From Promethearchaeota archaeon (GTDB lineage Archaea; Asgardarchaeota; Lokiarchaeia; Sigyniarchaeales; SOKP01), in contig JAHPZJ010000013.1 of assembly GCA_019058245.1 (NCBI GenBank), forward strand, positions 201,166 to 265,165: a DNA stretch of 64,000 nt. The letters run 5' to 3'. Each line of letters begins with the position of its first letter. The first letter of the stretch is position 1. Position numbers and translations under genes: made by a program. Shown here piece after piece: positions 40,127 to 61,801 of this stretch. The notes under the pieces were generated by a model. That model saw only the letters and a list, made by a program, of their open reading frames with translations, was not told the DNA's origin and did no database searches.

Positions 40127-40681
40127 ATGGAACTTCAAGATTCTAAGACTAAAATTGTTAGAGAAACCTTTCCATCAGAGACTATTTCTATTATTGGAGA
40201 CTTATTAGCAGGTATTATTTTATCGTTATTAATCTTACCTCTTGAAAGTTTTGTTGTTTTAATTTTAATGATTCCTGCTCTATTGTCTTTAAGGGGTAAT
40301 TTGAGTGGACCATTCATTGCTAGAACTTCCCGAGATTTGGTTATCGGAAATTTTTCAATAAGATCTTGGATTGAAAATATTCTGGCAACATATACACTCT
40401 CCATTATTACTGCTTTTTTTATCGGGTTTTTTTCACTTATTTTAAATTTATTTTTCTTTAAATTAACCATACTTTCTTATCAATATTTTTTTACAATTCC
40501 AATTATTTCAATAATATTAGCATTGTCAATTTCAATTCCTACCTCTACAGGACTGAATTATATCGTTTTTAAAAAAGGACTCAATCCTAATAACATCATA
40601 AATCCTGTGATGACTGCTATTGATGATTTTTCTACAGTATTATGTTTTTTTTTATCAATTATTATGCTGGGGGTGCCTTAA
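40127..40681 (+). CDS. MgtE/SLC41-type divalent cation transporter, membrane half 1
   Basis: IPALLSLRGN, GLNPNNIINPVMTAIDD. Confidence 0.85.
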   Translation: MELQDSKTKIVRETFPSETISIIGDLLAGIILSLLILPLESFVVLILMIPALLSLRGNLSGPFIARTSRDLVIGNFSIRSWIENILATYTLSIITAFFIGFFSLILNLFFFKLTILSYQYFFTIPIISIILALSISIPTSTGLNYIVFKKGLNPNNIINPVMTAIDDFSTVLCFFLSIIMLGVP

Positions 40682-41233
40682 ATCGAATATTATAAAAAAA
40701 TCATTAAAGAATCTATCATTATTGTTATTATATCTTCATTAATGGGATTGATAGCTGGAACTCTATTATCATCAAATAAAGAAATATTATATACCATTCC
40801 GATAATGCTATTAATAATTCCAGCACTAAATTCACTAATTGGCGATATTTCAACAGTTCTCGTATCAAGATTAACTACACATCTTTATATTGGCAGTTTA
40901 TCTCCAAAAATTCAGAAATCCGAAAGATTAAAAGAGGATTTTTATGGATTACTTATAACTCTTCTTTTAAGTTTAGGGGTTCTTGTATTTCTAGGATATT
41001 TTATAGGAATTATATCTGGTATTGAAATAGTAAACCCTTTTTTAGTGATAATTATTATAATCATTACAATTCTGTTACTTTTTTTAATAATGTTTATAAC
41101 TCTATTTATTGGAGCTATATTTCTGTTCAAACGAGGAATGGATCCAAATAATTTTCTTATTCCATTTCTTACATCTCTATCTGATTTTCTAACGCCCTTC
41201 TTTTTAATCTTATTTATAATAATATTTATATAA
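40682..41233 (+). CDS. MgtE/SLC41-type transporter, membrane half 2 (frame open from 40682; first ATG at 40742)
   Basis: IPALNSLIGD, GMDPNNFLIPFLTSLSD; the upstream in-frame IEYYKKIIKESIIIVIISSL supplies TM1. Confidence 0.8.
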   Translation: MEYYKKIIKESIIIVIISSLMGLIAGTLLSSNKEILYTIPIMLLIIPALNSLIGDISTVLVSRLTTHLYIGSLSPKIQKSERLKEDFYGLLITLLLSLGVLVFLGYFIGIISGIEIVNPFLVIIIIIITILLLFLIMFITLFIGAIFLFKRGMDPNNFLIPFLTSLSDFLTPFFLILFIIIFI

Positions 41234-48229: not shown

Positions 48230-49156
48230 ATGAATGAGCAGTATCGAGACCGATTCTTAAATAATAAATTCGATGAAAATAAATTACCTCAATCTATTTG
48301 TTGTGAAAATCCTTTTATTGAATCTCGAGATGGGAATAAAGTCTGTCTGAATTGTGGGATTATTTTTGAACGCACTTTTGTAGGAAATGAAAGACGAGCA
48401 TATACTATAGAAGAGATACAAAACAGGCGTAGAACAGAACCACGTTGGAGAGATTTTGGACCAAGGACTATGCTCCCGAACACGAAAACAGATAGTAAAG
48501 GTAAATCCATAGGTGCTAAAGAGCAAGCTCTCTTTTCACGACTCTCAAAAATTCAAAATTCATTAATTTCAAGCATAGAGAGAAACTTCTGGGAAGCAAA
48601 ACCGAAATTAAAAATGTTAACATCAAAACTTAATATTCCGGAATATATTGCTGAAACTGCTTGGAAAATATATAGTATCGTAGCTAAAAAGAAATTAACT
48701 ATGGGTAGATCAATTAATGGATTTATTTCTGGATCGTTATATGCTGCAATTCGTGTTCATGATTTTCCAAGATTATTAGATGAAATATGTGAAGCTTCAT
48801 TGACGCCAAGACGAACTGTCCATAGAAGCCTAGCAATGATTATTCGAGAAGTGCTTCCTGAAATAAATTTGAGATATCAACCGATAACAGCTGAATCACT
48901 AGTATTTCGTTTTGGAAATGAGCTAGATTTGCCGATTAAAATACAGAAAAACGCTATTAATATGTTAAGAGATGCTTCTAAAAATGGATTGAAGCGAACT
49001 GGAAAGGATCCTAAAGGTTTAGCAGCAGCGTGTATATACATTGCGGCAAAAAATGGTTGTATTCGGAAAACACAATCGAAAGTTGCTGATGTGGCTAAAA
49101 TTACAGAGGTTACTTTAAGATCTCGAGCAAAACAAATAAAAAGTAAACTTTCATAA
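48230..49156 (+). CDS. tfb: Transcription initiation factor IIB (TFB)
   Basis: Zn ribbon CC..VCLNCG, ERRAY, ERN, GRSING, LYAAIR, GKDPKGLAAACIYIA, TQSKVADVAKITEVTLRSR. Confidence 0.93.
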   Translation: MNEQYRDRFLNNKFDENKLPQSICCENPFIESRDGNKVCLNCGIIFERTFVGNERRAYTIEEIQNRRRTEPRWRDFGPRTMLPNTKTDSKGKSIGAKEQALFSRLSKIQNSLISSIERNFWEAKPKLKMLTSKLNIPEYIAETAWKIYSIVAKKKLTMGRSINGFISGSLYAAIRVHDFPRLLDEICEASLTPRRTVHRSLAMIIREVLPEINLRYQPITAESLVFRFGNELDLPIKIQKNAINMLRDASKNGLKRTGKDPKGLAAACIYIAAKNGCIRKTQSKVADVAKITEVTLRSRAKQIKSKLS

Positions 49157-49434: not shown

Positions 49435-51078
49435 GTGAGAATTATAAGTTTAAATGAATTGACCCCAAAGCAAGGTTATTGCTTATCGATATTATCTGCG
49501 ATATTATTATTATTAAGTTTTCCACCTTTTGAATTTGGAATGTTCTTGGGATGGATTGTTTATGTACCTATTTTATTGGCAGTGTATTTTGAGACGGAAG
49601 TGAAGCGAGTAAAGAGGATGGTTATGATTGCTAGTTTAGGTGCACTACCAGTATCCTTGGGTTTCAGTTGGTGGGTTTTAGATATGCTAAGAATTGTTTT
49701 TCCCCAGGCTCCAATATGGTTAAAAATCCCGGTATTTATTTTAGGTATCATAGTATGCATTGTTCTAACCAGAATCTTTGTGGAAATTATTACTAGATTA
49801 TGGCAACCAAAATCGCGTCCATCAGCAATAAAGATCACAAGATTCTTGCCATCAAATTTAGCAATCATAATAATACCAATTGCATTTACTTCTATAGAAT
49901 TTATAGCATTAAACATTCCTGGATTAATGAGAATTACAGGAATTTATGGGTTCTTTTCTATGGCGAAGACTCAATGGAAAAATATCCCAATATTGCAAAT
50001 AGCGTCATTTACGGGAATATATGGGATAACCTTTCTTGTGATAATAGTAAATTGTTCAATTACTTTATTTATTATTCATTATAAAAAAGTTAAGAAAATT
50101 TATAAACCCTCGATAATAATATTTTGCTTATTTCCATTCTTTCATTTGTACGGTTTCATTATAACTCCAAGTCGAAGTGATGGAAGTGTAACTATTGCTG
50201 TTTTACAAATGCCTCCTCAAGGAGAGAATACTTATAATAATTATTTTGATTTAAGTAATGAATCATTAAAATATAATCCGGATATAATAATTCTACCAGG
50301 ACTCATGCTTGATGGATTAATAATTGATGAGGGATTTATTAATTTCAGTAGTTCCAATAATGTTTATATAACTGGATTTGTTGAAAATTTAGGCTATTAT
50401 GGAATTGTCAGCCCAGATGGGGATCTAAAGGTTGATAACTTTGGATATCATCTCGCTACAATTCCTAATGATCTAATTTCCTTAAATATTTTAAGATTAT
50501 TTTTTCCTAAAGTAAATAGTTTAGAATTTGATATTGGTTCTTTTGCTGTTACTGATTGCTTTGAGTCAGGACTTCCTTTAGCAGCTAGGGACAGAGTAAG
50601 AAAAGGCGCAGAAATTTTATTAGTCCCAACAGGAAGTCCAAATGTTCAAGCCTTTTCATGGCTATTAAAAATAAATGCTATTTTTCGAGCTGTTGAAAAT
50701 CATATTTACACAGTTGAGGTAGTAGGAGATTATGACTCATCTATTATAATAGACCCTTATGGTAGAGTCATAAATGATATAGCTCCCGAAAAAAACATCA
50801 TCGTTGGAACAATATCATTTATTAATCAAAGAACCTTTTATTCGACATTTGGGGATATTTTTGGATGGATTATAGTCATTTGTTTCATAATCCTAGTAAT
50901 CTATAATTTTAAAATTAAAAAAAAAAGCACCTTTAAGTACTGTATAGAGTGTGAAAGTAAAATCGAAAAAACTGCTGAAACTTGTAATATTTGTGGTTCA
51001 AATCAAGAAAGACCTCCTCTTTGGAAGCGAATTATACTTCATGAATATTATGAGCATAAAAGGAAAAAATCAAAATAA
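49435..51078 (+). CDS. Apolipoprotein N-acyltransferase (Lnt)-like membrane CN-hydrolase with C-terminal zinc ribbon
   Basis: LLSFPPF, LQIASFTGIYGITFL, DCFES, FRAVEN, SIIIDPYGRV, TFYSTFGDIFGW; CIEC..CNICG tail. Confidence 0.8.
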   Translation: MRIISLNELTPKQGYCLSILSAILLLLSFPPFEFGMFLGWIVYVPILLAVYFETEVKRVKRMVMIASLGALPVSLGFSWWVLDMLRIVFPQAPIWLKIPVFILGIIVCIVLTRIFVEIITRLWQPKSRPSAIKITRFLPSNLAIIIIPIAFTSIEFIALNIPGLMRITGIYGFFSMAKTQWKNIPILQIASFTGIYGITFLVIIVNCSITLFIIHYKKVKKIYKPSIIIFCLFPFFHLYGFIITPSRSDGSVTIAVLQMPPQGENTYNNYFDLSNESLKYNPDIIILPGLMLDGLIIDEGFINFSSSNNVYITGFVENLGYYGIVSPDGDLKVDNFGYHLATIPNDLISLNILRLFFPKVNSLEFDIGSFAVTDCFESGLPLAARDRVRKGAEILLVPTGSPNVQAFSWLLKINAIFRAVENHIYTVEVVGDYDSSIIIDPYGRVINDIAPEKNIIVGTISFINQRTFYSTFGDIFGWIIVICFIILVIYNFKIKKKSTFKYCIECESKIEKTAETCNICGSNQERPPLWKRIILHEYYEHKRKKSK

Positions 51079-51168: not shown

Positions 51169-51732
51169 TTATTTTTTTATTTCTGACTCTTCTTCCTGTA
51201 AAAGAGTCCATTTTATAGCAATTCCGGTAACACATAATCCTGCCATAAGAATATAACAATTAAAAGAAATGAAAACAATCCATAAAATACCAGATAAAAG
51301 TGGGGTAATACTCGTATTATATAATGCGGTCTGAAAACGAATTGAATCAGATATAGTTGTGATTTTAGTTTTTCCCAAAAGTACCAAAAAATTCATTTTT
51401 ACAAATCCACCTAATAAAATAGTCATTCCAATGATTATCATATATTTCGCTAATGCCCTACTTTCAAAAGTTTTTGTTTGAATTATCTTAAACATAAAAA
51501 TTCCAAGAATTAGATAGCATATCGTTGTAATTATTAAGAATATCCATAATATGGTTCCAGAAATTGGGAACATTTCAGCAGAAAACATAATTTCTGATAA
51601 AAGAAGTGAATCACTAGTTAGAGTGAATATTGTGAAATGTAATATAATGAAAAAAACAATCTCGACCAATGAAACGATTATAAATATCAAACCAACGATT
51701 TGAATAAATTTAAGAATTTTATCATGTTTCAT
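51169..51732 (-). CDS. Four-TM hypothetical membrane protein
   Basis: Four hydrophobic segments in a 187-aa ORF. Confidence 0.7.
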   Translation of the reverse strand: MKHDKILKFIQIVGLIFIIVSLVEIVFFIILHFTIFTLTSDSLLLSEIMFSAEMFPISGTILWIFLIITTICYLILGIFMFKIIQTKTFESRALAKYMIIIGMTILLGGFVKMNFLVLLGKTKITTISDSIRFQTALYNTSITPLLSGILWIVFISFNCYILMAGLCVTGIAIKWTLLQEEESEIKK

Positions 51733-52950: not shown

Positions 52951-55830
52951 ATGTCATCCTTAGAAAAAAAATATGTTCCATATTATTATAATCAAACTAT
53001 TGAAGAGTTAATTAAAACTTTCAATACGGATATTAATAATGGAGTAAATTCTTCTGAATTAAGTGAGAGACATCTAAAATATGGATATAATGAAATATCG
53101 AGAATTAAAAAATCCATATGGAAAATTTATTTAGCACCGATTTTTAATTTTTTAATTGTAATTTTATTGGTTACGGGTATCATAATAGTTATTTTAGGCG
53201 CCATTGGAGACACTGTAATAACTTTTAGTGTTGTTGTAATCAATTCCGCTACTGCTATAATTCAGCAATTTAGAGCTCAAAAAGCTTTAGAATCTTTAAG
53301 AGAAATTTCGGGCTTAAAAGCAACAGTTTTACGGGATGCTAATCAATATGAAATTGATACAAGAGATTTAATTCCGGGGGATATAGTTATATTAGAACAA
53401 GGAGATAAAATACCTGCTGATGGGAGAATAATAAAAGAAATGAATTTAACTGTCGATGAAGCTCCATTAACAGGCGAAAGTGAACCTGTAGAAAAAAATA
53501 GTAAATCTATAGAGGAAATGGAACTTACAATTCAAAAACAATCAAATATGGTATTTATGGGTACCTATGTTCAAACTGGTCGAGCAAAAGAATTAGTAAC
53601 TGGAATTGGGATGAACACCGAAATTGGAAAAATTTCTCAAACCTTAAATGAAATGGGTAGTATTGAAGATATTCCTTTAACAAGAAAATTAAACAGATTA
53701 GGGTATATTTTAGGGACGATTGTTATTATTAATTTAATTGTTTTAATAATTTATAAACTTTCATGGCTACAGATTGAAGGAAACTTCATTCAAAGTCGAA
53801 TTATTGATGCTTTAGTAGATTCTATATTACGAGCGATGAATATTGTGCCTATTAATTTACCATTATTATCTACTTTAGTCCTAATCACTGGAGTTCTTAC
53901 AATGGCGCAACAAGGAGTTATAATCAAAAATCTATCAGCTATAGAGTCTCTTGGACGTGTATCTGTTATATGTTCAGATAAAACTGGAACAATAACAAAA
54001 AATGAGATGACTGTTGAAAAATTTTGGATAAACGAAAAAGAATATGAAGTTACTGGTTCTGGATATGATGCAGAAGGAGAAATTTTAAAAAATGGTAATC
54101 AAATTGAATTAGAAAAGAACGCTACATTTCAAATGTTTATTGATTCTATGGTTGTGAATAATAATGCAAGTCTAGTATTCGAAGATGTAAAAGTAAGATT
54201 AAGAGATTTAAAAGAAAAGGCAATAAGAAAAGCATTAGGATCACCTACAGAAGCCGCGTTATTAGTATTAGCTGAAAAAGTTGGTTATTTTACATATGAT
54301 CTCAAAAATAATTATGAAGTAACCGCTGAATTTTCTTTTAGTTCTGAATCCAAAAAGATGACGTCAATTTGTAAACTGATTTCAGAAGATTCAAATCTTT
54401 ATGCTTTTTCAAAAGGAGCACCTGAAAGAATTTTACAAATTTGCTCTCAAATTGAAATAAACGGTATTCTTAAATCTTTTGAAGACAATTATAAAATCCA
54501 AATTTCTAATAATATAGATGATCAAGCTAAAAAAGGATTTAGAACATTAGCAATAGCATATAAAAAATTAAATTCAAATATTAATGAAAAAAGAGAAGAA
54601 ATTGAGAAAGATTTAATCTTTTTAGGATTTGTCTCAATTATGGATCCCCCTCGAGAAGGAGTTAGAGATTCTATTGAAATTTGCAGAAAAGGTGGCATAA
54701 AAGTAATAATGATTACTGGTGATCATCCTGCTACAGCTCAAACAATAGCCTCCCAAATGGGCATCTTTTCTGAAAAGAATTTAGTAGCAACCGGAGAACA
54801 AATCAAAAATATGGATCTATTAGAGTTCAATAAAACCACGGTTTTCGCACGTGTAGAACCAACTGATAAAGAGGTTATAGTTGAAAATTACCAAAATCAA
54901 AATTATATTTGCGCTATGACTGGAGATGGTATAAATGACGCACCTGCATTGAAGCTTGCTAATGCGGGAATCTCTATGGGAATAACAGGAACGGATCTTG
55001 CTAAAGAAGCTTCGGATATGGTAATCACGGATGATAATTTCGTATCAATTAAACAAGGAGTTAAAATTGGAAGAGGAATTTTTGCAAAAATAAGAACCAT
55101 TATTTTCTTCTTTATTTGTACAAATATAATGGAAGGTATCATCTTTTTTGCTTTTGAAATGCTCCAACCATTTACTGGATTTGAATTATTTTCCTCAAAT
55201 TGGCAACATATCTATATTTTTGGAATTTTACATTCCCTTCCCTCCTTAGCATTAGTTTTAGATATTCATCCAAAAGATATTATGAATGAACCTCCTAGAA
55301 ATGAAGAAGAATTATTAAATAAGAATTTATGGGTATTTTTACTAATTCAAGCTTTCCTTGGAGGTTTAGGATTAGTTTTAGCATTACTATTACCATTAAG
55401 TGGTTTAATTCCCTTGAATTCTTGGAATCTAAATGACTCCTTAAGTTATATTCCCACTGGAGCATCTGAAATATATATGCTACATATGAAAGCAAGAACT
55501 ATGTTTATAACAACAATTTATATCTTTGAATCATTCTTTATTTGGACGTTTAGACGTCCAAATAAATCATTATATAAGAGTATAAAGGAAGAATTAAGTT
55601 ATACGTTATTACTTATATGTCTTTTTACATTAGGCTTACACATTCTTTTTATATGCTTTTCTTATTTAGCTAATCATTACGTGAATAATGTATTTGGGTT
55701 AGGCTTGCAGATTAACTTCATTTTCCTCAGTGGAACAGATTGGATAATATGTTTTTTACTTACATTACCTGGTATATTAGGAATTGAACTATTTAAATAC
55801 TTAGCTAGAGAGAAGCAAATTTATTTTTAA
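52951..55830 (+). CDS. P-type ATPase, type II-like scaffold with atypical M4 motif (PINL)
   Basis: TGES, DKTGT, KGAPE, DPPR, TGD, GDGIND; M4 IVPINLP. Confidence 0.93.
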   Translation: MSSLEKKYVPYYYNQTIEELIKTFNTDINNGVNSSELSERHLKYGYNEISRIKKSIWKIYLAPIFNFLIVILLVTGIIIVILGAIGDTVITFSVVVINSATAIIQQFRAQKALESLREISGLKATVLRDANQYEIDTRDLIPGDIVILEQGDKIPADGRIIKEMNLTVDEAPLTGESEPVEKNSKSIEEMELTIQKQSNMVFMGTYVQTGRAKELVTGIGMNTEIGKISQTLNEMGSIEDIPLTRKLNRLGYILGTIVIINLIVLIIYKLSWLQIEGNFIQSRIIDALVDSILRAMNIVPINLPLLSTLVLITGVLTMAQQGVIIKNLSAIESLGRVSVICSDKTGTITKNEMTVEKFWINEKEYEVTGSGYDAEGEILKNGNQIELEKNATFQMFIDSMVVNNNASLVFEDVKVRLRDLKEKAIRKALGSPTEAALLVLAEKVGYFTYDLKNNYEVTAEFSFSSESKKMTSICKLISEDSNLYAFSKGAPERILQICSQIEINGILKSFEDNYKIQISNNIDDQAKKGFRTLAIAYKKLNSNINEKREEIEKDLIFLGFVSIMDPPREGVRDSIEICRKGGIKVIMITGDHPATAQTIASQMGIFSEKNLVATGEQIKNMDLLEFNKTTVFARVEPTDKEVIVENYQNQNYICAMTGDGINDAPALKLANAGISMGITGTDLAKEASDMVITDDNFVSIKQGVKIGRGIFAKIRTIIFFFICTNIMEGIIFFAFEMLQPFTGFELFSSNWQHIYIFGILHSLPSLALVLDIHPKDIMNEPPRNEEELLNKNLWVFLLIQAFLGGLGLVLALLLPLSGLIPLNSWNLNDSLSYIPTGASEIYMLHMKARTMFITTIYIFESFFIWTFRRPNKSLYKSIKEELSYTLLLICLFTLGLHILFICFSYLANHYVNNVFGLGLQINFIFLSGTDWIICFLLTLPGILGIELFKYLAREKQIYF

Positions 55831-55970
55831 TGAGAAATTATCTTATTTTACCTTTTAATAATCTTATGATATCTTTAAATTAAATGGTTATTATAGGTTA
55901 TTTATTAAATTAAATAGATAGAAGATTTCAATAATCATTAATTATTCTCAATAATTCTGGAAGATTTATT

Positions 55971-58853
55971 ATGGAAATTACAGATGAAAATTACTACAAT
56001 ATTGAATTAGATCAAATTTATCAAAAATTTCAAACCAATTCTGAAACAGGATTAACTCAACAAGAAGCTAATAAACGATTAGAAAAGTATGGATATAATG
56101 AGATTCCTAAAGTCTCTAAAGGATTTATTAAAATCTATTTAGCACCTTTATTTAACTGGCTTATAGTCATTTATTTAATTGGCGCACTGATCTTATTTTT
56201 AGCATGGGTGTTTGGAGGAGGAGGAAATGTTGCTTTTATTATAATTACTTTAGGAATTGTATTATTGAATTGCATAGTTGCTATAATTCAACAATATAGA
56301 GCCACAAAAAAACTTAAAGCTCTACGCGAATTAACAGCACCCACCTCAACAATTATTAGAGACGGACAAAAAAGAGAAGTTCCTACCAAAGAAATTGTAG
56401 TTGGTGATTTATTAGTTTTAGAGCAAGGTGATAAAATACCTGCTGACGCTAGAATTATTCAATCTTATAACATGGTTGTTAATGAGGCTTCATTAACTGG
56501 AGAATCTGAGCCTGTAAGAAAAGTTGAAGTAGGAAAAGCACTCCAGAAAAAAGATATTTCTATAGGAGAACGTAACAATATGGTTTTTTATGGAACTTAT
56601 ATTTCAACTGGGAATGGTAAATCAATTGTGGTTAAAACTGGTGGAGATACAGAAATCGGAAAAATATCTCATGGATTAGAAGAAGCTGGAACAAGTGAGA
56701 TACCAATTAGAGAGAAGATGAACAATTTTGGAAAATGGTTAGGATTAATTATATTTATTTTTTGGTTTATCACTTTAATAATACTCTGGTTAGCAACTGG
56801 AGAAGCAAATATTGTAAAGAGTATGAATTCTGCGCTCGATCTTATGCCATTAAACATACCACTGCTTACAACTATCGTTTTAATAACAGGAGTCTTAGCT
56901 ATGGCACATTATGGAGTAATTATTAGAAATCTTGCATCTGTAGATAGTTTAGGACGTGTAAGCGTAGTCTGTTCAGATAAAACAGGAACTTTAACTAAAA
57001 ATCAAATGTCAATTCAACATGTCTGGACAAATGGTTCAATTTTTAGAATTACTGGTAGTGGTTATACTCCTGATGGAGAAATCATTTTAATGAATGACCC
57101 AAAAAATCCAATTTATGTAAAACACATTGATGAATTTCCTTATTTAAAGTTATTGTTAACAGCAGGATTTTTAAATAACAATTCTGCATTAATTAAAAAT
57201 GAATTAGAGATTTCTGGGAAAACTATCCCTAATTGGAATGTGGTTGGTTCTCCTACAGAAGGAGCATTAATGGTATTATATCAAAAAGGAATGGGAGATT
57301 ATCTTCTTGATGATTATGAATCTATAACTGAATATCCTTTTGATTCTTCATTAAAAAGAATGACAAAGCTTTATAAACGAGATCACGCTTATTATTCTTT
57401 TACAAAAGGTGCGAGTGAAATACTAATTCCTCAATGTACAAAAATCTTATACAATGATGCTGAAATTGGTTTCAGTGAAGAAATTAAAAGTAAAGTATTG
57501 GAAATTGTAAATCTTTATGCAAATCAAGGTTTTCGTATATTGAGTTTGTGTTATAAAGTGATGGATATAATTCCACCTGAAGGAGAGAAAGGAAGAGAAA
57601 TAAGCGAATCTGATATGATATATATTGGTTTTGTTACTATCCAAGATCCACCGCGAGAAGGTGTTAAGGAATCTGTAATAGAATGTCATGAAGCTGGAGT
57701 TGATGTTATTATGATCACAGGGGATTCTCCTGCTACAGCAAGAGCGATTGCCACACAAATTGGGATTGTATCTAGTGAAAATGATACTGTTATTGAAGGG
57801 ATAAAAATAAAAGAAATCGAGTCATATAAACAATTCAATCCAATTAAAGTGTTTGCGAGAGTCTCTCCAGAACATAAAGAAGATATTGTAGAAAAATATC
57901 AGGAACAAAATAAAGTAGTAGCAATGACAGGTGATGGTGTTAATGATGCTTTAGCTTTAAATATGGCAGATGTAGGAATCGCAATGGGCATCACGGGTAC
58001 AGATGTAGCTAAAGAAGCTTCTGATATGGTTATTTCAGATGATTCGTTTAACTCAATCGTAACTGGTATCCATCATGGCAGAGGGATTTTTGCCAGAATT
58101 CGAGCTTTGGTTTTCTTTTACATAGTTATTAATATTTTTGAAGGGATAGTTCAATTTATTTTAGCGGTAATTTTTTCCCTACCCTTTTGGGTTGATCCAG
58201 CATCACCATTTTATTATCAATGGATTTTTCTCACGATAACTCTTCATACATTTCCAGGTTTGATTCTTACCTTTGATACAACTTCAGATGATGTTATGAA
58301 AGAAAAACCACGTGATTCAGAAGAAATACTTTCAAAAAATATTTTTATTCTGTTATTTATATTTGGAATGTTGATGGCTATAAGCATGGTAATAGTATAT
58401 TACATTACATTCAGCGGAATTTATGAGGTTGTTAATGCTAACATAGATTTTGGTTCATTTAATGATGCATATCTTTATGGAGGATCGGATCTTGTAGCAG
58501 ATCTTCCGCTATTGAGACAAGCAAAAACCTTAACAATGCTTATGTTAACCTTATTTTTCTGTGAATCCTTTTTAGTATTCCAAATTAGGCGTCCTAATAA
58601 ATCATTAATAAAAAGCTTAATTGAAGATCGAAATAAATTTATGTTTATTCTAATTGGCTTTTTATTTTTTGTATTTATCGCCTTATTATACATCCCTGGT
58701 GTTCAAGTTTTTTTAGCTGATTCCGGAATTAATTTTATGTTTATGTATCTAACGGGATTAGACTGGTTGGTATGTTTCCTAATCTCGCTAATTTGCATAG
58801 CCTCATTTGAAATTGTGAAATTTATCGCTCGTAGAAAGAATATCACTTTTTAA
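55971..58853 (+). CDS. P-type ATPase, tandem paralog with atypical M4 motif (PLNI)
   Basis: TGES, DKTGT, KGASE, DPPR, TGD, GDGVND; M4 LMPLNIP. Confidence 0.93.
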   Translation: MEITDENYYNIELDQIYQKFQTNSETGLTQQEANKRLEKYGYNEIPKVSKGFIKIYLAPLFNWLIVIYLIGALILFLAWVFGGGGNVAFIIITLGIVLLNCIVAIIQQYRATKKLKALRELTAPTSTIIRDGQKREVPTKEIVVGDLLVLEQGDKIPADARIIQSYNMVVNEASLTGESEPVRKVEVGKALQKKDISIGERNNMVFYGTYISTGNGKSIVVKTGGDTEIGKISHGLEEAGTSEIPIREKMNNFGKWLGLIIFIFWFITLIILWLATGEANIVKSMNSALDLMPLNIPLLTTIVLITGVLAMAHYGVIIRNLASVDSLGRVSVVCSDKTGTLTKNQMSIQHVWTNGSIFRITGSGYTPDGEIILMNDPKNPIYVKHIDEFPYLKLLLTAGFLNNNSALIKNELEISGKTIPNWNVVGSPTEGALMVLYQKGMGDYLLDDYESITEYPFDSSLKRMTKLYKRDHAYYSFTKGASEILIPQCTKILYNDAEIGFSEEIKSKVLEIVNLYANQGFRILSLCYKVMDIIPPEGEKGREISESDMIYIGFVTIQDPPREGVKESVIECHEAGVDVIMITGDSPATARAIATQIGIVSSENDTVIEGIKIKEIESYKQFNPIKVFARVSPEHKEDIVEKYQEQNKVVAMTGDGVNDALALNMADVGIAMGITGTDVAKEASDMVISDDSFNSIVTGIHHGRGIFARIRALVFFYIVINIFEGIVQFILAVIFSLPFWVDPASPFYYQWIFLTITLHTFPGLILTFDTTSDDVMKEKPRDSEEILSKNIFILLFIFGMLMAISMVIVYYITFSGIYEVVNANIDFGSFNDAYLYGGSDLVADLPLLRQAKTLTMLMLTLFFCESFLVFQIRRPNKSLIKSLIEDRNKFMFILIGFLFFVFIALLYIPGVQVFLADSGINFMFMYLTGLDWLVCFLISLICIASFEIVKFIARRKNITF

Positions 58854-58933: not shown

Positions 58934-59482
58934 ATGCTAAGAGGTCCCAGAATTAAATTAGTCCCTATTAAAAGGGAATATATTGAGTCATTTCTCAAAT
59001 GGGTTAACGACCCAGAAATTACTCAATATCTAATAATGTATCGTCCAATAACTAGAATGGCTGAGGAAGATTGGATTGAAAGCCTTAGAGAAGATAATGA
59101 AAGTATACATTTTTCTATAGTAATATTCCATGAAAATAAACTTGAAAAATTGATTGGAAATTGTGGATTAAACAATATTAATTGGAAAGACAGAATTGCT
59201 GAAGCGGGAATTGTTATTGGAGAAAAAGAGTATCATAATAAAGGATATGGAACAGAAGCATTGAATATTTTGTTAGAATATGGGTTTAACACGGTAAATT
59301 TAAACCGTATTGAATTGCTTGTTTATGAGTATAATACTAGAGCTATAAAATCTTATAAAAAAGTTGGATTTGTTGAAGAAGGACGAAAAAGGCAATTTAT
59401 CTGGAATGATGGAAAATATTATGATGCTCTTATAATGAGTATATTAGCTAAAGAATGGGAAGAAAAGAATAAAAAAGATTAA
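58934..59482 (+). CDS. RimJ/RimL-type GNAT acetyltransferase
   Basis: GIVIGEKEYHNKGYGTEA, NTRAIKSYKKVGFVEEG. Confidence 0.92.
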   Translation: MLRGPRIKLVPIKREYIESFLKWVNDPEITQYLIMYRPITRMAEEDWIESLREDNESIHFSIVIFHENKLEKLIGNCGLNNINWKDRIAEAGIVIGEKEYHNKGYGTEALNILLEYGFNTVNLNRIELLVYEYNTRAIKSYKKVGFVEEGRKRQFIWNDGKYYDALIMSILAKEWEEKNKKD

Positions 59483-60522
59483 TCTAATTCATTAAAGTAA
59501 GGTATTATCTTATCTCGAACTATTTCATAAACTTTATTAGGATCAGGTCCTCTATTCATAAAACTCATATTTGTAGCACCAGCTTGCTGATATTTTTCAA
59601 TACTAGAAATAACATCATCAGTAGTACCTATACAGTTTGTATCTTGTAATATTGTTTCGGGTAACTTATCTATATTATTCGCATAATCTAATAAATTTCC
59701 ACCAGTCATATCAACATCATGAACATTAGTAATTTCTGGTAGATTTAAGTTAGGATATGCTTCATTTGTAATATATGCATTTAATACATAAGAAGACTTA
59801 AAGAATTCACATCTTTTTAATGCATTATTAGGGTCATCATCGTCAATTGCTATAAAACAATCATAAACAAAATCGATATCAGATGGATTTCTATTACTCG
59901 CTTTCGCAATATCAGAGATTTCTTTTACATATTTTTTATAGAGCCATGGCGGCTGATAAAGTGGATACCAACCATCTGCTAATTCTCCAGTTATTTTGCG
60001 CGTTTTTGGACCATTACCCGCAACATAAATAGGGATTCTGTCTTGAATAGGTTTAATTTGAATATAAGCATTTTTAATTTCTCCCCAGAATTCACTATTT
60101 CTATTAACCCTTTTTTTTGTCCAGAAATCTCTCATTAAATTAATATATTCTCGTAATTTTGTAACTGATCTCTTTCTTTCTATACCATACATATCAATAT
60201 TCATTGCTTCCCCAGCTCCAAGTGCTATCATACCTCTTCCATTAGATATTTGATCTAACGTAGCTACTTTATGCGCCATTAATGCGGGATGAAAACGGTG
60301 ACAATCAGAAACTCCCGTACATAACATTATTTTTTTTGTTATCATCGCTAAAGATGATAAAAAACAATAAGCATCAAAACAAGTTCCTGGACCTGGAGGC
60401 AACATTGTTGTATGATCTGCATAAAAAACTCCAAAAAAGCCACATTCTTCTGCTTTTTTTGTACCATTGAACATATATTCAAGACGAGGTGTTGGTACAG
60501 GTATGTGAAAACTAAATCTCAT
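59479..60522 (-). CDS. LLM-class (luciferase-like, probably F420-dependent) oxidoreductase
   Basis: FYADH, HPALMAHKVATLDQISNGR..LGAG, ELADGW. Confidence 0.9.
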   Translation of the reverse strand: MRFSFHIPVPTPRLEYMFNGTKKAEECGFFGVFYADHTTMLPPGPGTCFDAYCFLSSLAMITKKIMLCTGVSDCHRFHPALMAHKVATLDQISNGRGMIALGAGEAMNIDMYGIERKRSVTKLREYINLMRDFWTKKRVNRNSEFWGEIKNAYIQIKPIQDRIPIYVAGNGPKTRKITGELADGWYPLYQPPWLYKKYVKEISDIAKASNRNPSDIDFVYDCFIAIDDDDPNNALKRCEFFKSSYVLNAYITNEAYPNLNLPEITNVHDVDMTGGNLLDYANNIDKLPETILQDTNCIGTTDDVISSIEKYQQAGATNMSFMNRGPDPNKVYEIVRDKIIPYFNELD

Positions 60523-60685: not shown

Positions 60686-61801
60686 ATGGACATTAAAATT
60701 GGGACGGAGGGAACATTTATTCCTCCCTTTGATCGAGGTATTGAAAGTGTAAAGAGAATCGAAGAAATTGGATATGATTCAATTTGGTTTGCGGATCATT
60801 TAATGGGATGGATCCCAGAATCGATTTGGACTCCAGACCTTATAGAATGGTCAAAACATCAAAAAAGTCCCCATGATTTTTTTGATGTTTATCCTGCAAT
60901 GTCAGTGGCAGCATGGAGCACTAAAAAAGTTCAATTAGGTACAAGTGTTACAGAAACTTTTAGGAGACATCCAGCTGTACTAGCTCAGACGTTTCTAACC
61001 TTAGATCATATCTCAAAAGGAAGAGCAATTCTCGGTATTGGTACTGGTGAAGGAGAAAATATTATTCCTTATGGTATTAAATGGGAAAAACCTGTTAGTA
61101 GATTAGAAGAGGCAATAAAAATAATAAAGCTTCTTTGGGAAAATGATGAAAAAGTTAATTATGATGGAGATTTTTGGAAATTAAAAAATGCCGTCCTTTC
61201 GGTAAAACCTTATGAAGAAGGAAAATATCCACCTATATGGATAGCTGCTCATGGTCCTAAAATGTGTGAATTAACAGGAAGACTTGGAGATGGTTGGTTA
61301 CCATCCAACTTTGATGTTAAAACCTTTAAAAATAGACTCAATCTTATTCATTCTTCAGCAAAAAAAGCTGGACGTAATCCAGAAGAAATTACACCAGGGT
61401 TATGGACCACTTTAATTATTGATGAAGATCATGGTGTCTGTGATGATTTATTAGAATCCCCATATGTAAAAAATTATACTTTAATTCAATCGAATGCTAC
61501 ATTTGAAGAATTTGGTATGTCGCACCCATTCGGTAAAGATTTCTATGGTCTTCTCGATTACATCCCAACTAATTATGATCGAGAAACTATGCTTGAAGCT
61601 ATGAGTAAGATTCCAAAAGAACTATTAAATAAACACTTTTTACATGGCACTCCAGATGAGATTATATCAAAAATTGAAAAATATGCTAAAGCTGGATTAA
61701 AACATATAGTTCTTTATAATATAACTTACAACTGCGATCTTTCTAAAGTAAAAAGCTCTTTTGGATGCTTAAAAAAAGTTATAAATTATTTTAAAAAATA
61801 A
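60686..61801 (+). CDS. LLM-class (probably F420-dependent) oxidoreductase
   Basis: WFADH, RRHPAVLAQTFLTLDHISKGRAILGIGTGE, AAHGPKM..GDGWLP. Confidence 0.92.
   Translation: MDIKIGTEGTFIPPFDRGIESVKRIEEIGYDSIWFADHLMGWIPESIWTPDLIEWSKHQKSPHDFFDVYPAMSVAAWSTKKVQLGTSVTETFRRHPAVLAQTFLTLDHISKGRAILGIGTGEGENIIPYGIKWEKPVSRLEEAIKIIKLLWENDEKVNYDGDFWKLKNAVLSVKPYEEGKYPPIWIAAHGPKMCELTGRLGDGWLPSNFDVKTFKNRLNLIHSSAKKAGRNPEEITPGLWTTLIIDEDHGVCDDLLESPYVKNYTLIQSNATFEEFGMSHPFGKDFYGLLDYIPTNYDRETMLEAMSKIPKELLNKHFLHGTPDEIISKIEKYAKAGLKHIVLYNITYNCDLSKVKSSFGCLKKVINYFKK

Follow-up and report, generated by a model that had tools for sequence, protein, structure and literature searches.

The families of P-type ATPases are told apart by their membrane-site chemistry, and each has so far proved to have its own cargo. 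In characterised single-site members of the P2A family, such as LMCA1 and SPCA, the site that is used is site II. The two genes considered here lie side by side in a 64,000-nucleotide stretch of a Promethearchaeota archaeon genome (contig JAHPZJ010000013.1, positions 201,166 to 265,165; hereafter the window, with a G+C content of about 28%) and encode pump A (P0001) and pump B (P0002). Both resemble the P2A pumps LMCA1, SPCA1/PMR1 and SERCA in domain order, ten-helix fold, catalytic motifs and the Asn and Glu of transmembrane helix M5. They differ from these pumps at the membrane site: in SERCA numbering, P(I/L)N(L/I) takes the place of PEGL in M4, N796 and T799 are lost, D800 is replaced by His, the M8 Glu is fixed, the M1 Gln has become Pro and the M2 Glu has become Gln. 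They also form a separate clade and score below the P2A cut-offs. Of the hallmarks of a P2A pump, the pair thus has the ten-helix P2 fold and the Cation_ATPase_N and Cation_ATPase_C domains, but neither PEGL with E309 nor the N796 and D800 of M6. We refer to the group to which A and B belong as the PxN/His clade. It forms a hitherto undescribed sub-family within the P2-like pumps, and A and B are probably neither Ca pumps nor relatives of the eukaryotic lipid flippases.

Several other families depart from the P2A pattern in part. P3A H+-ATPases, such as AHA2 and Pma1, have a hydrophobic residue at the E309 position (PIAMP or PVGLP). They are like the clade in this respect, as well as in having a single site and no metal-type site II, but they combine an M6 Asp with an M5 Arg, whereas A and B have an M6 His and no buried Arg. 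In AHA2, the M6 Asp D684 is used for transport (PMC10654040). The P6 pump CtpE of M. tuberculosis keeps PEGL, has Ile in place of the M6 Asp and has been proposed to be an importer (PMC10654040); the clade likewise consists of P2-like pumps with the M6 Asp replaced, but in A and B PEGL is lost and the replacement is His rather than Ile. P5 pumps read PP(E/D/A)LP in M4, whereas in A and B a single Pro is followed by Ile or Leu and then Asn, and the P5 score is below cut-off. The P4 flippases (ATP8A1, Drs2) share with A an Ile at the E309 position of M4. However, they have DGET and PISL, lack the acidic M5/M8 pair and usually associate with CDC50, whereas A and B have TGES, a P(I/L)N motif with an invariant Asn, and Glu in both M5 and M8. 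To our knowledge, P4 flippases occur only in eukaryotes. According to one review, no prokaryotic relatives of P4 and P5 pumps are known; it describes P6 but nothing like the PxN/His clade (PMC10654040). No description of the clade turned up in literature searches on its motif or on the P-type ATPases of Asgard archaea either, and no characterised clade was found that includes A and B; the Asgard homologues are listed simply as putative Ca2+-ATPases in a transportome paper (PMC7997004).

Catalytic and membrane-site residues

The A and B reading frames are complete, translate without internal stops and lie 140 bp apart on the forward strand (Table 1); the products are 41% identical over their full length. 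The Pfam domains follow the same order in both: Cation_ATPase_N, E1-E2_ATPase, Cation_ATPase, Hydrolase and Cation_ATPase_C. TGES, DKTGT, KGA(P/S)E, DPPR and GDGxND are all intact, which agrees with the initial annotation, made from the sequence alone, for the three motifs it had named (TGES, DKTGT and GDGxND). In the A domain of both pumps TGES stands within LTGESEP, and it recurs in 111/120 A-type and 118/120 B-type clusters. Membership of the superfamily is clear from TIGR01494 scores of 287 (A) and 300 (B) bits against a cut-off of 62, and the AlphaFold2 model of A (predicted local distance difference test score, pLDDT, 87.6; predicted template-modelling score, pTM, 0.83) has ten transmembrane helices. 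Their motifs mark A and B as pumps with intact catalytic machinery, from a branch of the P2A-like P-type ATPases that is archaeal and hitherto undescribed.

The membrane site was mapped in a 192-sequence alignment of 89 clade members and 103 canonical PEGL pumps, the canonical consensus being PEGLP in M4, N..GE in M5 and NLVTDGLP in M6. At the E309 position the clade has Ile, Leu, Phe or Trp, and at the G310 position a near-invariant Asn. The N796 position is Phe, Ser, Ile or Tyr (Ser or Ile in B), and the T799 position is mostly hydrophobic, with Thr kept in sub-branch F. The D800 position is His in all six sub-branches and Asp in 93% of the PEGL representatives; the His is aligned with the Asp of TDGLP, and an alignment of A with LMCA1 gives the same correspondences in M4 and M6. 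The M5 Asn and Glu (N768 and E771) are invariant in the six sub-branches and are found in the PEGL pumps as well, and the E908 position is an invariant Glu in the clade, compared with Gln in 52% and Glu in 41% of the PEGL representatives. At the M1 position of SERCA Q56, which is Gln in 93% of the PEGL representatives, sub-branches A-E have a Pro. The QEY motif of M2 has a conserved Glu, part of the cytoplasmic entry funnel, and this residue is Gln in sub-branches A-D. The readings VPINLP and MPLNIP for M4, a His at D800 with N796 absent, and the retention of the M5 and M8 residues had all been proposed from the window alone, and each of them was reproduced in the alignment.

What remains of the ion sites? 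Ca site II is abolished, as had been suggested earlier, by changes that are conserved across the clade, and part of the acidic cytoplasmic entry funnel is lost. Site I is retained, but its residues are now Asn(M5)-Glu(M5)-His(M6)-Glu(M8), and a new Asn adjoins it in M4. The predicted polar cluster comprises these five residues, which stay constant across the six sub-branches and hundreds of orthologues. Such a site, with Ile/Leu-Asn in M4, His in M6 and two Glu, is seen in no characterised family, and the earlier idea of a novel substrate site stands.

Placement and distribution of the clade

The altered M4 motif is not an accident of two genes. Orthologues of A fall into 120 clusters at 66-89% identity, with PINLP in 118/120; those of B also fall into 120 clusters, at 71-93% identity, and all of them have P[IL]N[IL]P (PINIP in 76, PLNIP in 33 and PINLP in 11). 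The PxN motif is not due to chance, since it is conserved across the clusters together with the invariant His and both Glu, and since a degenerate DNA pattern, "PxN ... DKTGT", had exactly 2 matches in the window where 0 were expected. An exhaustive HMMER search covered 1.84 billion representatives; among the best 150, about 35 clusters (at 50% identity) have P-x-N or a close variant (PIMIP, PVSIP, PWSFP) in M4, and these score above or among the ordinary PEGL pumps.

In a FastTree phylogeny of 136 full-length representatives, a branch with a support of 100 separated 103 PEGL pumps and one PSGLP pump from all PxN-like pumps. A second tree, made with IQ-TREE under the LG+C20 mixture model, had 59 rows, with E. 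coli MgtA as the outgroup and prokaryotic pumps rather than eukaryotic P4 or P5 pumps as references. Here, the PxN pumps formed one clade (SH-like approximate likelihood-ratio support 100, branch length 0.5), emerging from an unresolved comb of PEGL pumps and arranged as a ladder of sub-branches F (PWNFP), E (PFNFP), A, D (PINxV) and B+C. By these trees, the PxN/His clade is monophyletic, has six sub-branches and lies beside or within the prokaryotic PEGL (P2A-like) pumps. A survey of the clade, as the initial annotation had called for, finds the changes fixed across the six sub-branches and present in most sampled Asgard genomes and in a few bins labelled as TACK. Bacterial pumps with PENLP or PENMP in M4 were also seen in Actinomycetota, Clostridia and one Mollicutes (loci L008, L010, L025, L032 and at least 17 further loci); they keep the M4 Glu and have the Gly-to-Asn change in common with the PxN clade. 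They were placed in the PEGL comb of the tree, and on that placement they are a different thing from the PxN clade.

The family models give a similar picture. A scored 475.9 bits on the NCBIfam SERCA model TIGR01116 (cut-off 703.4) and 467.2 on the PMR1 model TIGR01522 (cut-off 798.3); B scored 436.5 and 470.8, respectively, both below cut-off. For A, the other models followed at 411 (PMCA), 405 (ENA), 358 (Na,K), 346 (H+), 324 (Mg), 240 (P5) and 139 bits (P4), and every type II equivalog cut-off was missed, by 100 to 330 bits or more. Four PEGL control pumps, on the other hand, each exceeded at least one of the SERCA and PMR1 cut-offs, with 700-823 bits. On the H+-ATPase model TIGR01647 (cut-off 615.5) the pair scored 346 and 347 bits. 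On the P4 model TIGR01652 (cut-off 431.25), A reached 139.3 and B 103.7 bits, five members of sub-branches C-F 86-126 bits and the PEGL controls 91-103 bits; on the P5 model TIGR01657 (cut-off 618), the corresponding values were 240 and 238, 226-240 and 243-278 bits. The clade thus has no special affinity for P4 or P5, its scores being like those of the PEGL controls. The best fold matches of the A model were SPCA1 in the E2P state (template-modelling scores 0.78/0.83) and SERCA2b E2-BeF3 (0.80), with no P4 flippase among the best 50 matches, and a search of the ESM Atlas returned generic P-type clusters only. The best sequence relatives with solved structures were LMCA1 (PDB 6zhf and 9euq; 428 bits), SPCA1 (403 bits) and SERCA (362 bits). 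By profile scores, fold and tree, the clade belongs to P2, and the SERCA-like scaffold that had been proposed for the pair is borne out by the type IIA models (about 470 bits at best) and by the matches to SPCA1 and SERCA.

Who carries these pumps? Named relatives of A and B bear Promethearchaeota, Loki-, Thor-, Hermod-, Hod-, Odin-, Heimdall- and Helarchaeota labels, and the 120 A orthologue clusters are all Asgard-labelled. There are two label exceptions among the A and B relatives: a partial "bacterium" sequence and an "Aerophobetes" contig (NJBP01000013.1, "Aerophobetes bacterium Ae_b3b", locus L038). On the latter, a B-type pump shares 65% identity with P0002, a luciferase-like monooxygenase shares 71% with its counterpart in the window, and the neighbour genes are those of the window; the contig is probably an Asgard contig mis-binned into a bacterial metagenome-assembled genome. 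A DNA-pattern scan ("P-x-N ... L..G ... LG ... DKTGT") of one genome per GTDB species, in which the taxonomic counts represent a sample, found at least 29 A-type, at least 33 B-type and at least 49 C-type or other pumps. Some of the C-type or other pumps come from non-Asgard bins (at least two Nitrososphaeria, at least two Bathyarchaeota and at least one Methanomethylicus), and a Korarchaeota-labelled clade member is also present. The tree of the C branch took in those Nitrososphaeria and Bathyarchaeota sequences that had sufficient length; they are nested in Asgard diversity, next to Atabeyarchaeia, and gene transfer or mislabelling is therefore a possible source of the non-Asgard members.

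Among 201 genomes drawn evenly from the GTDB phylum of the window, 187 had a match to A at E <= 1e-100 (83 of the 85 high-quality genomes), an inclusive count, since this threshold may also take in PEGL-type pumps. All 40 sampled genomes of the window's own GTDB family had a match, and B lies directly downstream of A wherever the contig shows it; among the matches listed, A orthologues (at least 52% identity) were found only in this family, the other families of the phylum having one to four paralogues with 39-45% identity to A. On these matches, the A-then-B tandem appears to be confined to the window's own family.

The same cells may also have ordinary pumps. Six P-type ATPases are encoded in the window's genome (76% complete): besides A and B there are four more, of which the one that was read is a CPC copper pump. 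Neither a PEGL pump nor a CaCA exchanger was found in this genome at that completeness. Four relatives of the same family that are 100% complete combine PxN pumps (the pair in three, and only B found in G065) with one or two additional pumps that read PEGLV in M4. The absence of a PEGL pump from the window's genome is best explained by incompleteness. One PEGLV pump that was read, in G040 (L128:922-3759), has N..E in M5, NIATDGIP in M6 and the M8 Glu, so that every SERCA Ca ligand is present. The coexistence of PxN and canonical pumps argues that the PxN pair is not the cell's ordinary Ca pump and would serve a different cargo. The PEGLV pumps have some features of their own: in G040 (contig C25) two 945-aa copies form a tandem (L128:922-3759 and L128:4103-6940), a second tandem occurs in G147:C10, and single copies are found in G071 and G065. 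With 575-608 bits for the G040 pair, the type IIA models place these pumps below the equivalog cut-offs, so that they, too, are a divergent archaeal P2A group.

Possible cargoes

What do these pumps carry? The reading we favour, and consider reasonably likely, is that A and B pump one small cation other than Ca2+ at a single His-containing site, namely H+ or a transition metal or other divalent ion. If the cargo is a proton, the His and Glu would serve as a carrier plus a built-in counter-charge; in H,K-ATPase, LMCA1 and AHA2 the built-in counter-charge is a Lys or Arg. If it is a metal, Mn2+, Fe2+, Zn2+ or another divalent ion would bind at a His-carboxylate site; sites made of His, carboxylate and amide groups are typical of Zn, Fe and Mn transporters and are unsuited to Ca2+. 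The cycle could be importer-like, with a substrate that would bind E2P from the outside and trigger dephosphorylation, because the acidic cytoplasmic path is neutralised and there is a hydrophobic residue at the E309 gate. The roles of A and B are probably not redundant, since they are old paralogues that have been kept side by side in one family.

Ca2+ itself is unlikely as a cargo, since His binds Ca2+ poorly and the single-site P2A pumps rely on site II. It is true that the closest characterised relatives are Ca2+/Mn2+ pumps, that the equivalents of N768, E771 and E908 remain, that neither a PEGL pump nor a CaCA exchanger was found in the 76% complete genome, and that the source annotations read "Ca2+-transporting ATPase", in line with the putative Ca2+-ATPases of the transportome paper (PMC7997004). 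However, an exporter of Ca2+ (or Ca2+/Mn2+) with a chemically altered single site would have to work after the loss of E309, N796, T799 and D800, and hence of the very site that is used in LMCA1 and SPCA; the complete relatives have separate pumps with every Ca ligand, and the pair misses the type II equivalog cut-offs by the wide margins given above. We regard such an exporter as improbable. It is harder still to believe that the pumps are degenerate and hydrolyse ATP, or signal, without transport. The canonical gate residue and one ion site have indeed gone, but the catalytic motifs and the five-residue membrane polar cluster are invariant down to about 36% identity, and invariance across so deep a divergence is the pattern of a working transport site.

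The remaining alternatives have larger cargoes. There is some small chance that the substrate is non-ionic or bulky (an archaeal lipid, a polyamine or something peptide-like), which would be bound to E2P from the outside behind the Ile/Leu/Phe/Trp gate of M4. The initial annotation had suggested a flippase-like pump, possibly a P2-to-P4 intermediate or a product of convergence. As a P4-ancestor-like or convergent form, such a pump would move lipids or other bulky or amphipathic substrates through an M1-M2-M4-M6 groove; the E-H-E cluster would then be a structural, self-neutralised plug only. Such a pump would account for the Ile/Leu at the E309 position, as in PISL, for the filling of site II by hydrophobic or aromatic residues and for the loss of the acidic cytoplasmic funnel, and it would fit a clade concentrated in the Asgard archaea, the sister lineage of eukaryotes, at a time when the origin of P4 is open and P4 and P5 have no known prokaryotic relatives (PMC10654040). 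The flippase idea did not hold up well, however, and now looks unlikely. TGES is kept rather than DGET, Asn stands for the Ser of PISL, and the two buried Glu and the Asn of site I are retained; the P4 model gives 86-139 bits, near the 91-103 bits of the PEGL controls and far from the cut-off of 431, and the P5 score is not raised. The clade lies beside or within the prokaryotic PEGL pumps in the MgtA-rooted tree, and its best fold matches are all P2. The 323-aa protein encoded upstream of A is soluble and resembles TFB (transcription factor B); it is not a membrane subunit. No match to CDC50 (PF03381) was found in the window's genome, which is a weak point, as that genome is 76% complete and the control genomes were likewise without any match. 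A P5B-like pump for polyamines or other organic amines, in which amine groups would bind to the Glu and the acetyltransferase encoded downstream would act on the cargo, is more doubtful again. A GNAT gene does follow B on the same strand in at least 16 related loci, its best named matches being the aminosugar and spermidine N-acetyltransferases PseH (81.8 bits) and SpeG (60.6 bits). Both matches are below cut-off (93 and 218 bits, respectively), the neighbours differ in sub-branch C, so that the linkage looks like lineage synteny, and the pumps have no PP(A/E)LP motif and a P5 score no higher than that of the PEGL controls.

Several considerations count against the small-cation reading. Its cargo is deduced from residues and P-type chemistry, and the convergence of the five side chains in space is presumed from the alignment. 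P4 flippases, too, have a hydrophobic residue at the E309 position, and a buried polar cluster persists in them as well, so that the retained Glu would be compatible with a bulky substrate. The gene neighbourhood reflects shared descent and says little on cargo, spot checks of other transporters show no clear gap for these pumps to fill, and the phylum-wide count is, as noted, inclusive.

Whatever the cargo, most of the genomes sampled from the archaeal phylum nearest to eukaryotes have members of the clade, which are annotated throughout as Ca pumps, and the label "Ca2+-transporting ATPase" is probably wrong for hundreds of database entries. If the cargo is H+ or a transition metal, models of Asgard ion homeostasis and energy conservation would change, and a new subfamily would be added to the P-type scheme. 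If it is a lipid or an amine, the finding would matter for the question, so far unexplained, of how the eukaryote-only P4 and P5 pumps arose; a bulky cargo would make the clade the first prokaryotic counterpart, by ancestry or convergence, of the P4/P5 "giant substrate" pumps, and one that sits in the lineage closest to eukaryotes.

Gene neighbourhood

The pair lies in a conserved block, which was followed through the 8-kb loci of the genome scan. In at least 14-23 related loci the order is TFB, membrane ORF (open reading frame), TFB-like protein, A, B, GNAT and two luciferase-like monooxygenases (Table 1).

Table 1. Positions in the window of the two pump genes, their motifs and the genes around them
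Feature	Position	Strand	Basis or occurrence
Pump A (P0001), 959 aa, PxN/His-clade P-type ATPase, sub-branch A	52951-55830	+	ORF, translation, Pfam
A, M1 APIFN; clade-specific Pro at SERCA Q56, Asn at D59 position	53134-53148	+	Alignment
A, TGES	53470-53481	+	Motif location
A, M4 VPINLP; E309 to Ile301, G310 to Asn302	53845-53862	+	PINLP in orthologue clusters
A, DKTGT	53977-53991	+	Motif location
A, GDGIND	54922-54939	+	Motif location
A, M5 TNIMEG; Asn725 and Glu728 equivalent to N768 and E771, kept	55120-55137	+	Alignment
A, M6 ILHSLP; His761 at D800 position, N796 to Phe, T799 to Leu	55225-55242	+	Alignment
A, M8 IFESF; Glu860 equivalent to E908	55522-55536	+	Alignment
Pump B (P0002), 960 aa, paralogue of A, sub-branch B	55971-58853	+	ORF, translation, Pfam
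B, TGES	56496-56507	+	Motif location
B, M4 MPLNIP; E309 to Leu, G310 to Asn	56844-56861	+	Alignment, orthologue clusters
B, DKTGT	56976-56990	+	Motif location
B, GDGVND	57930-57947	+	Motif location
B, M5 INIFEG; Asn and Glu kept	58128-58145	+	Alignment
B, M6 TLHTFP; His at D800 position	58239-58256	+	Alignment
B, M8 FCESF; Glu kept, preceded by a conserved Cys	58557-58571	+	FFCESF in 98/120 clusters
Canonical TFB	48230-49156		Upstream of A in at least 14 related loci
Multi-pass membrane protein, 187 aa, no family match	51169-51732	-	Same position in at least 17 related loci
Divergent TFB-like Zn-ribbon protein (P0407), 323 aa	51892-52863		Directly upstream of A in at least 23 related loci
GNAT acetyltransferase	58934-59482	+	Downstream of B in at least 16 related loci
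Luciferase-like (probably F420-dependent) monooxygenase/oxidoreductase	59479-60522	-	Conserved downstream of the pair
Luciferase-like (probably F420-dependent) monooxygenase/oxidoreductase, divergent to the preceding gene	60686-61801		Conserved downstream of the pair

P0407 was considered as a CDC50-like or beta-like subunit and rejected, being a soluble protein with a TFB-like Zn ribbon and zero transmembrane helices; no family scored above cut-off for it. The neighbourhood as a whole was likewise rejected as a clue to the cargo: the C-type pumps have unrelated neighbours (ketopantoate hydroxymethyltransferase, subtilase, SCP2 and MFS), and the block is a matter of lineage synteny.

Lokiarchaea have been described as having no known Mg2+ transporters (PMC7997004), a remark that would leave room for a Mg2+ importer. 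This argument from a gap was rejected, as CorA is present in 20 and MgtE in 30 of 31 genomes of the window's family. In a spot check of five genomes, ZIP, CDF and FeoB were found in all five, CaCA in three and NRAMP in none. The window itself has two adjacent ORFs of about 185 aa with MgtE domains (40271-41212, corresponding to G000:C13:241436-242377), and in several relatives this ORF pair is located 8-14 kb from the A and B pumps. Upstream of the pair, at 49435-51078, is a gene for a 547-aa protein with apolipoprotein N-acyltransferase N-terminal and CN-hydrolase domains (64 bits on TIGR00546, cut-off 132.9), and such an Lnt-like enzyme is odd for an archaeon.

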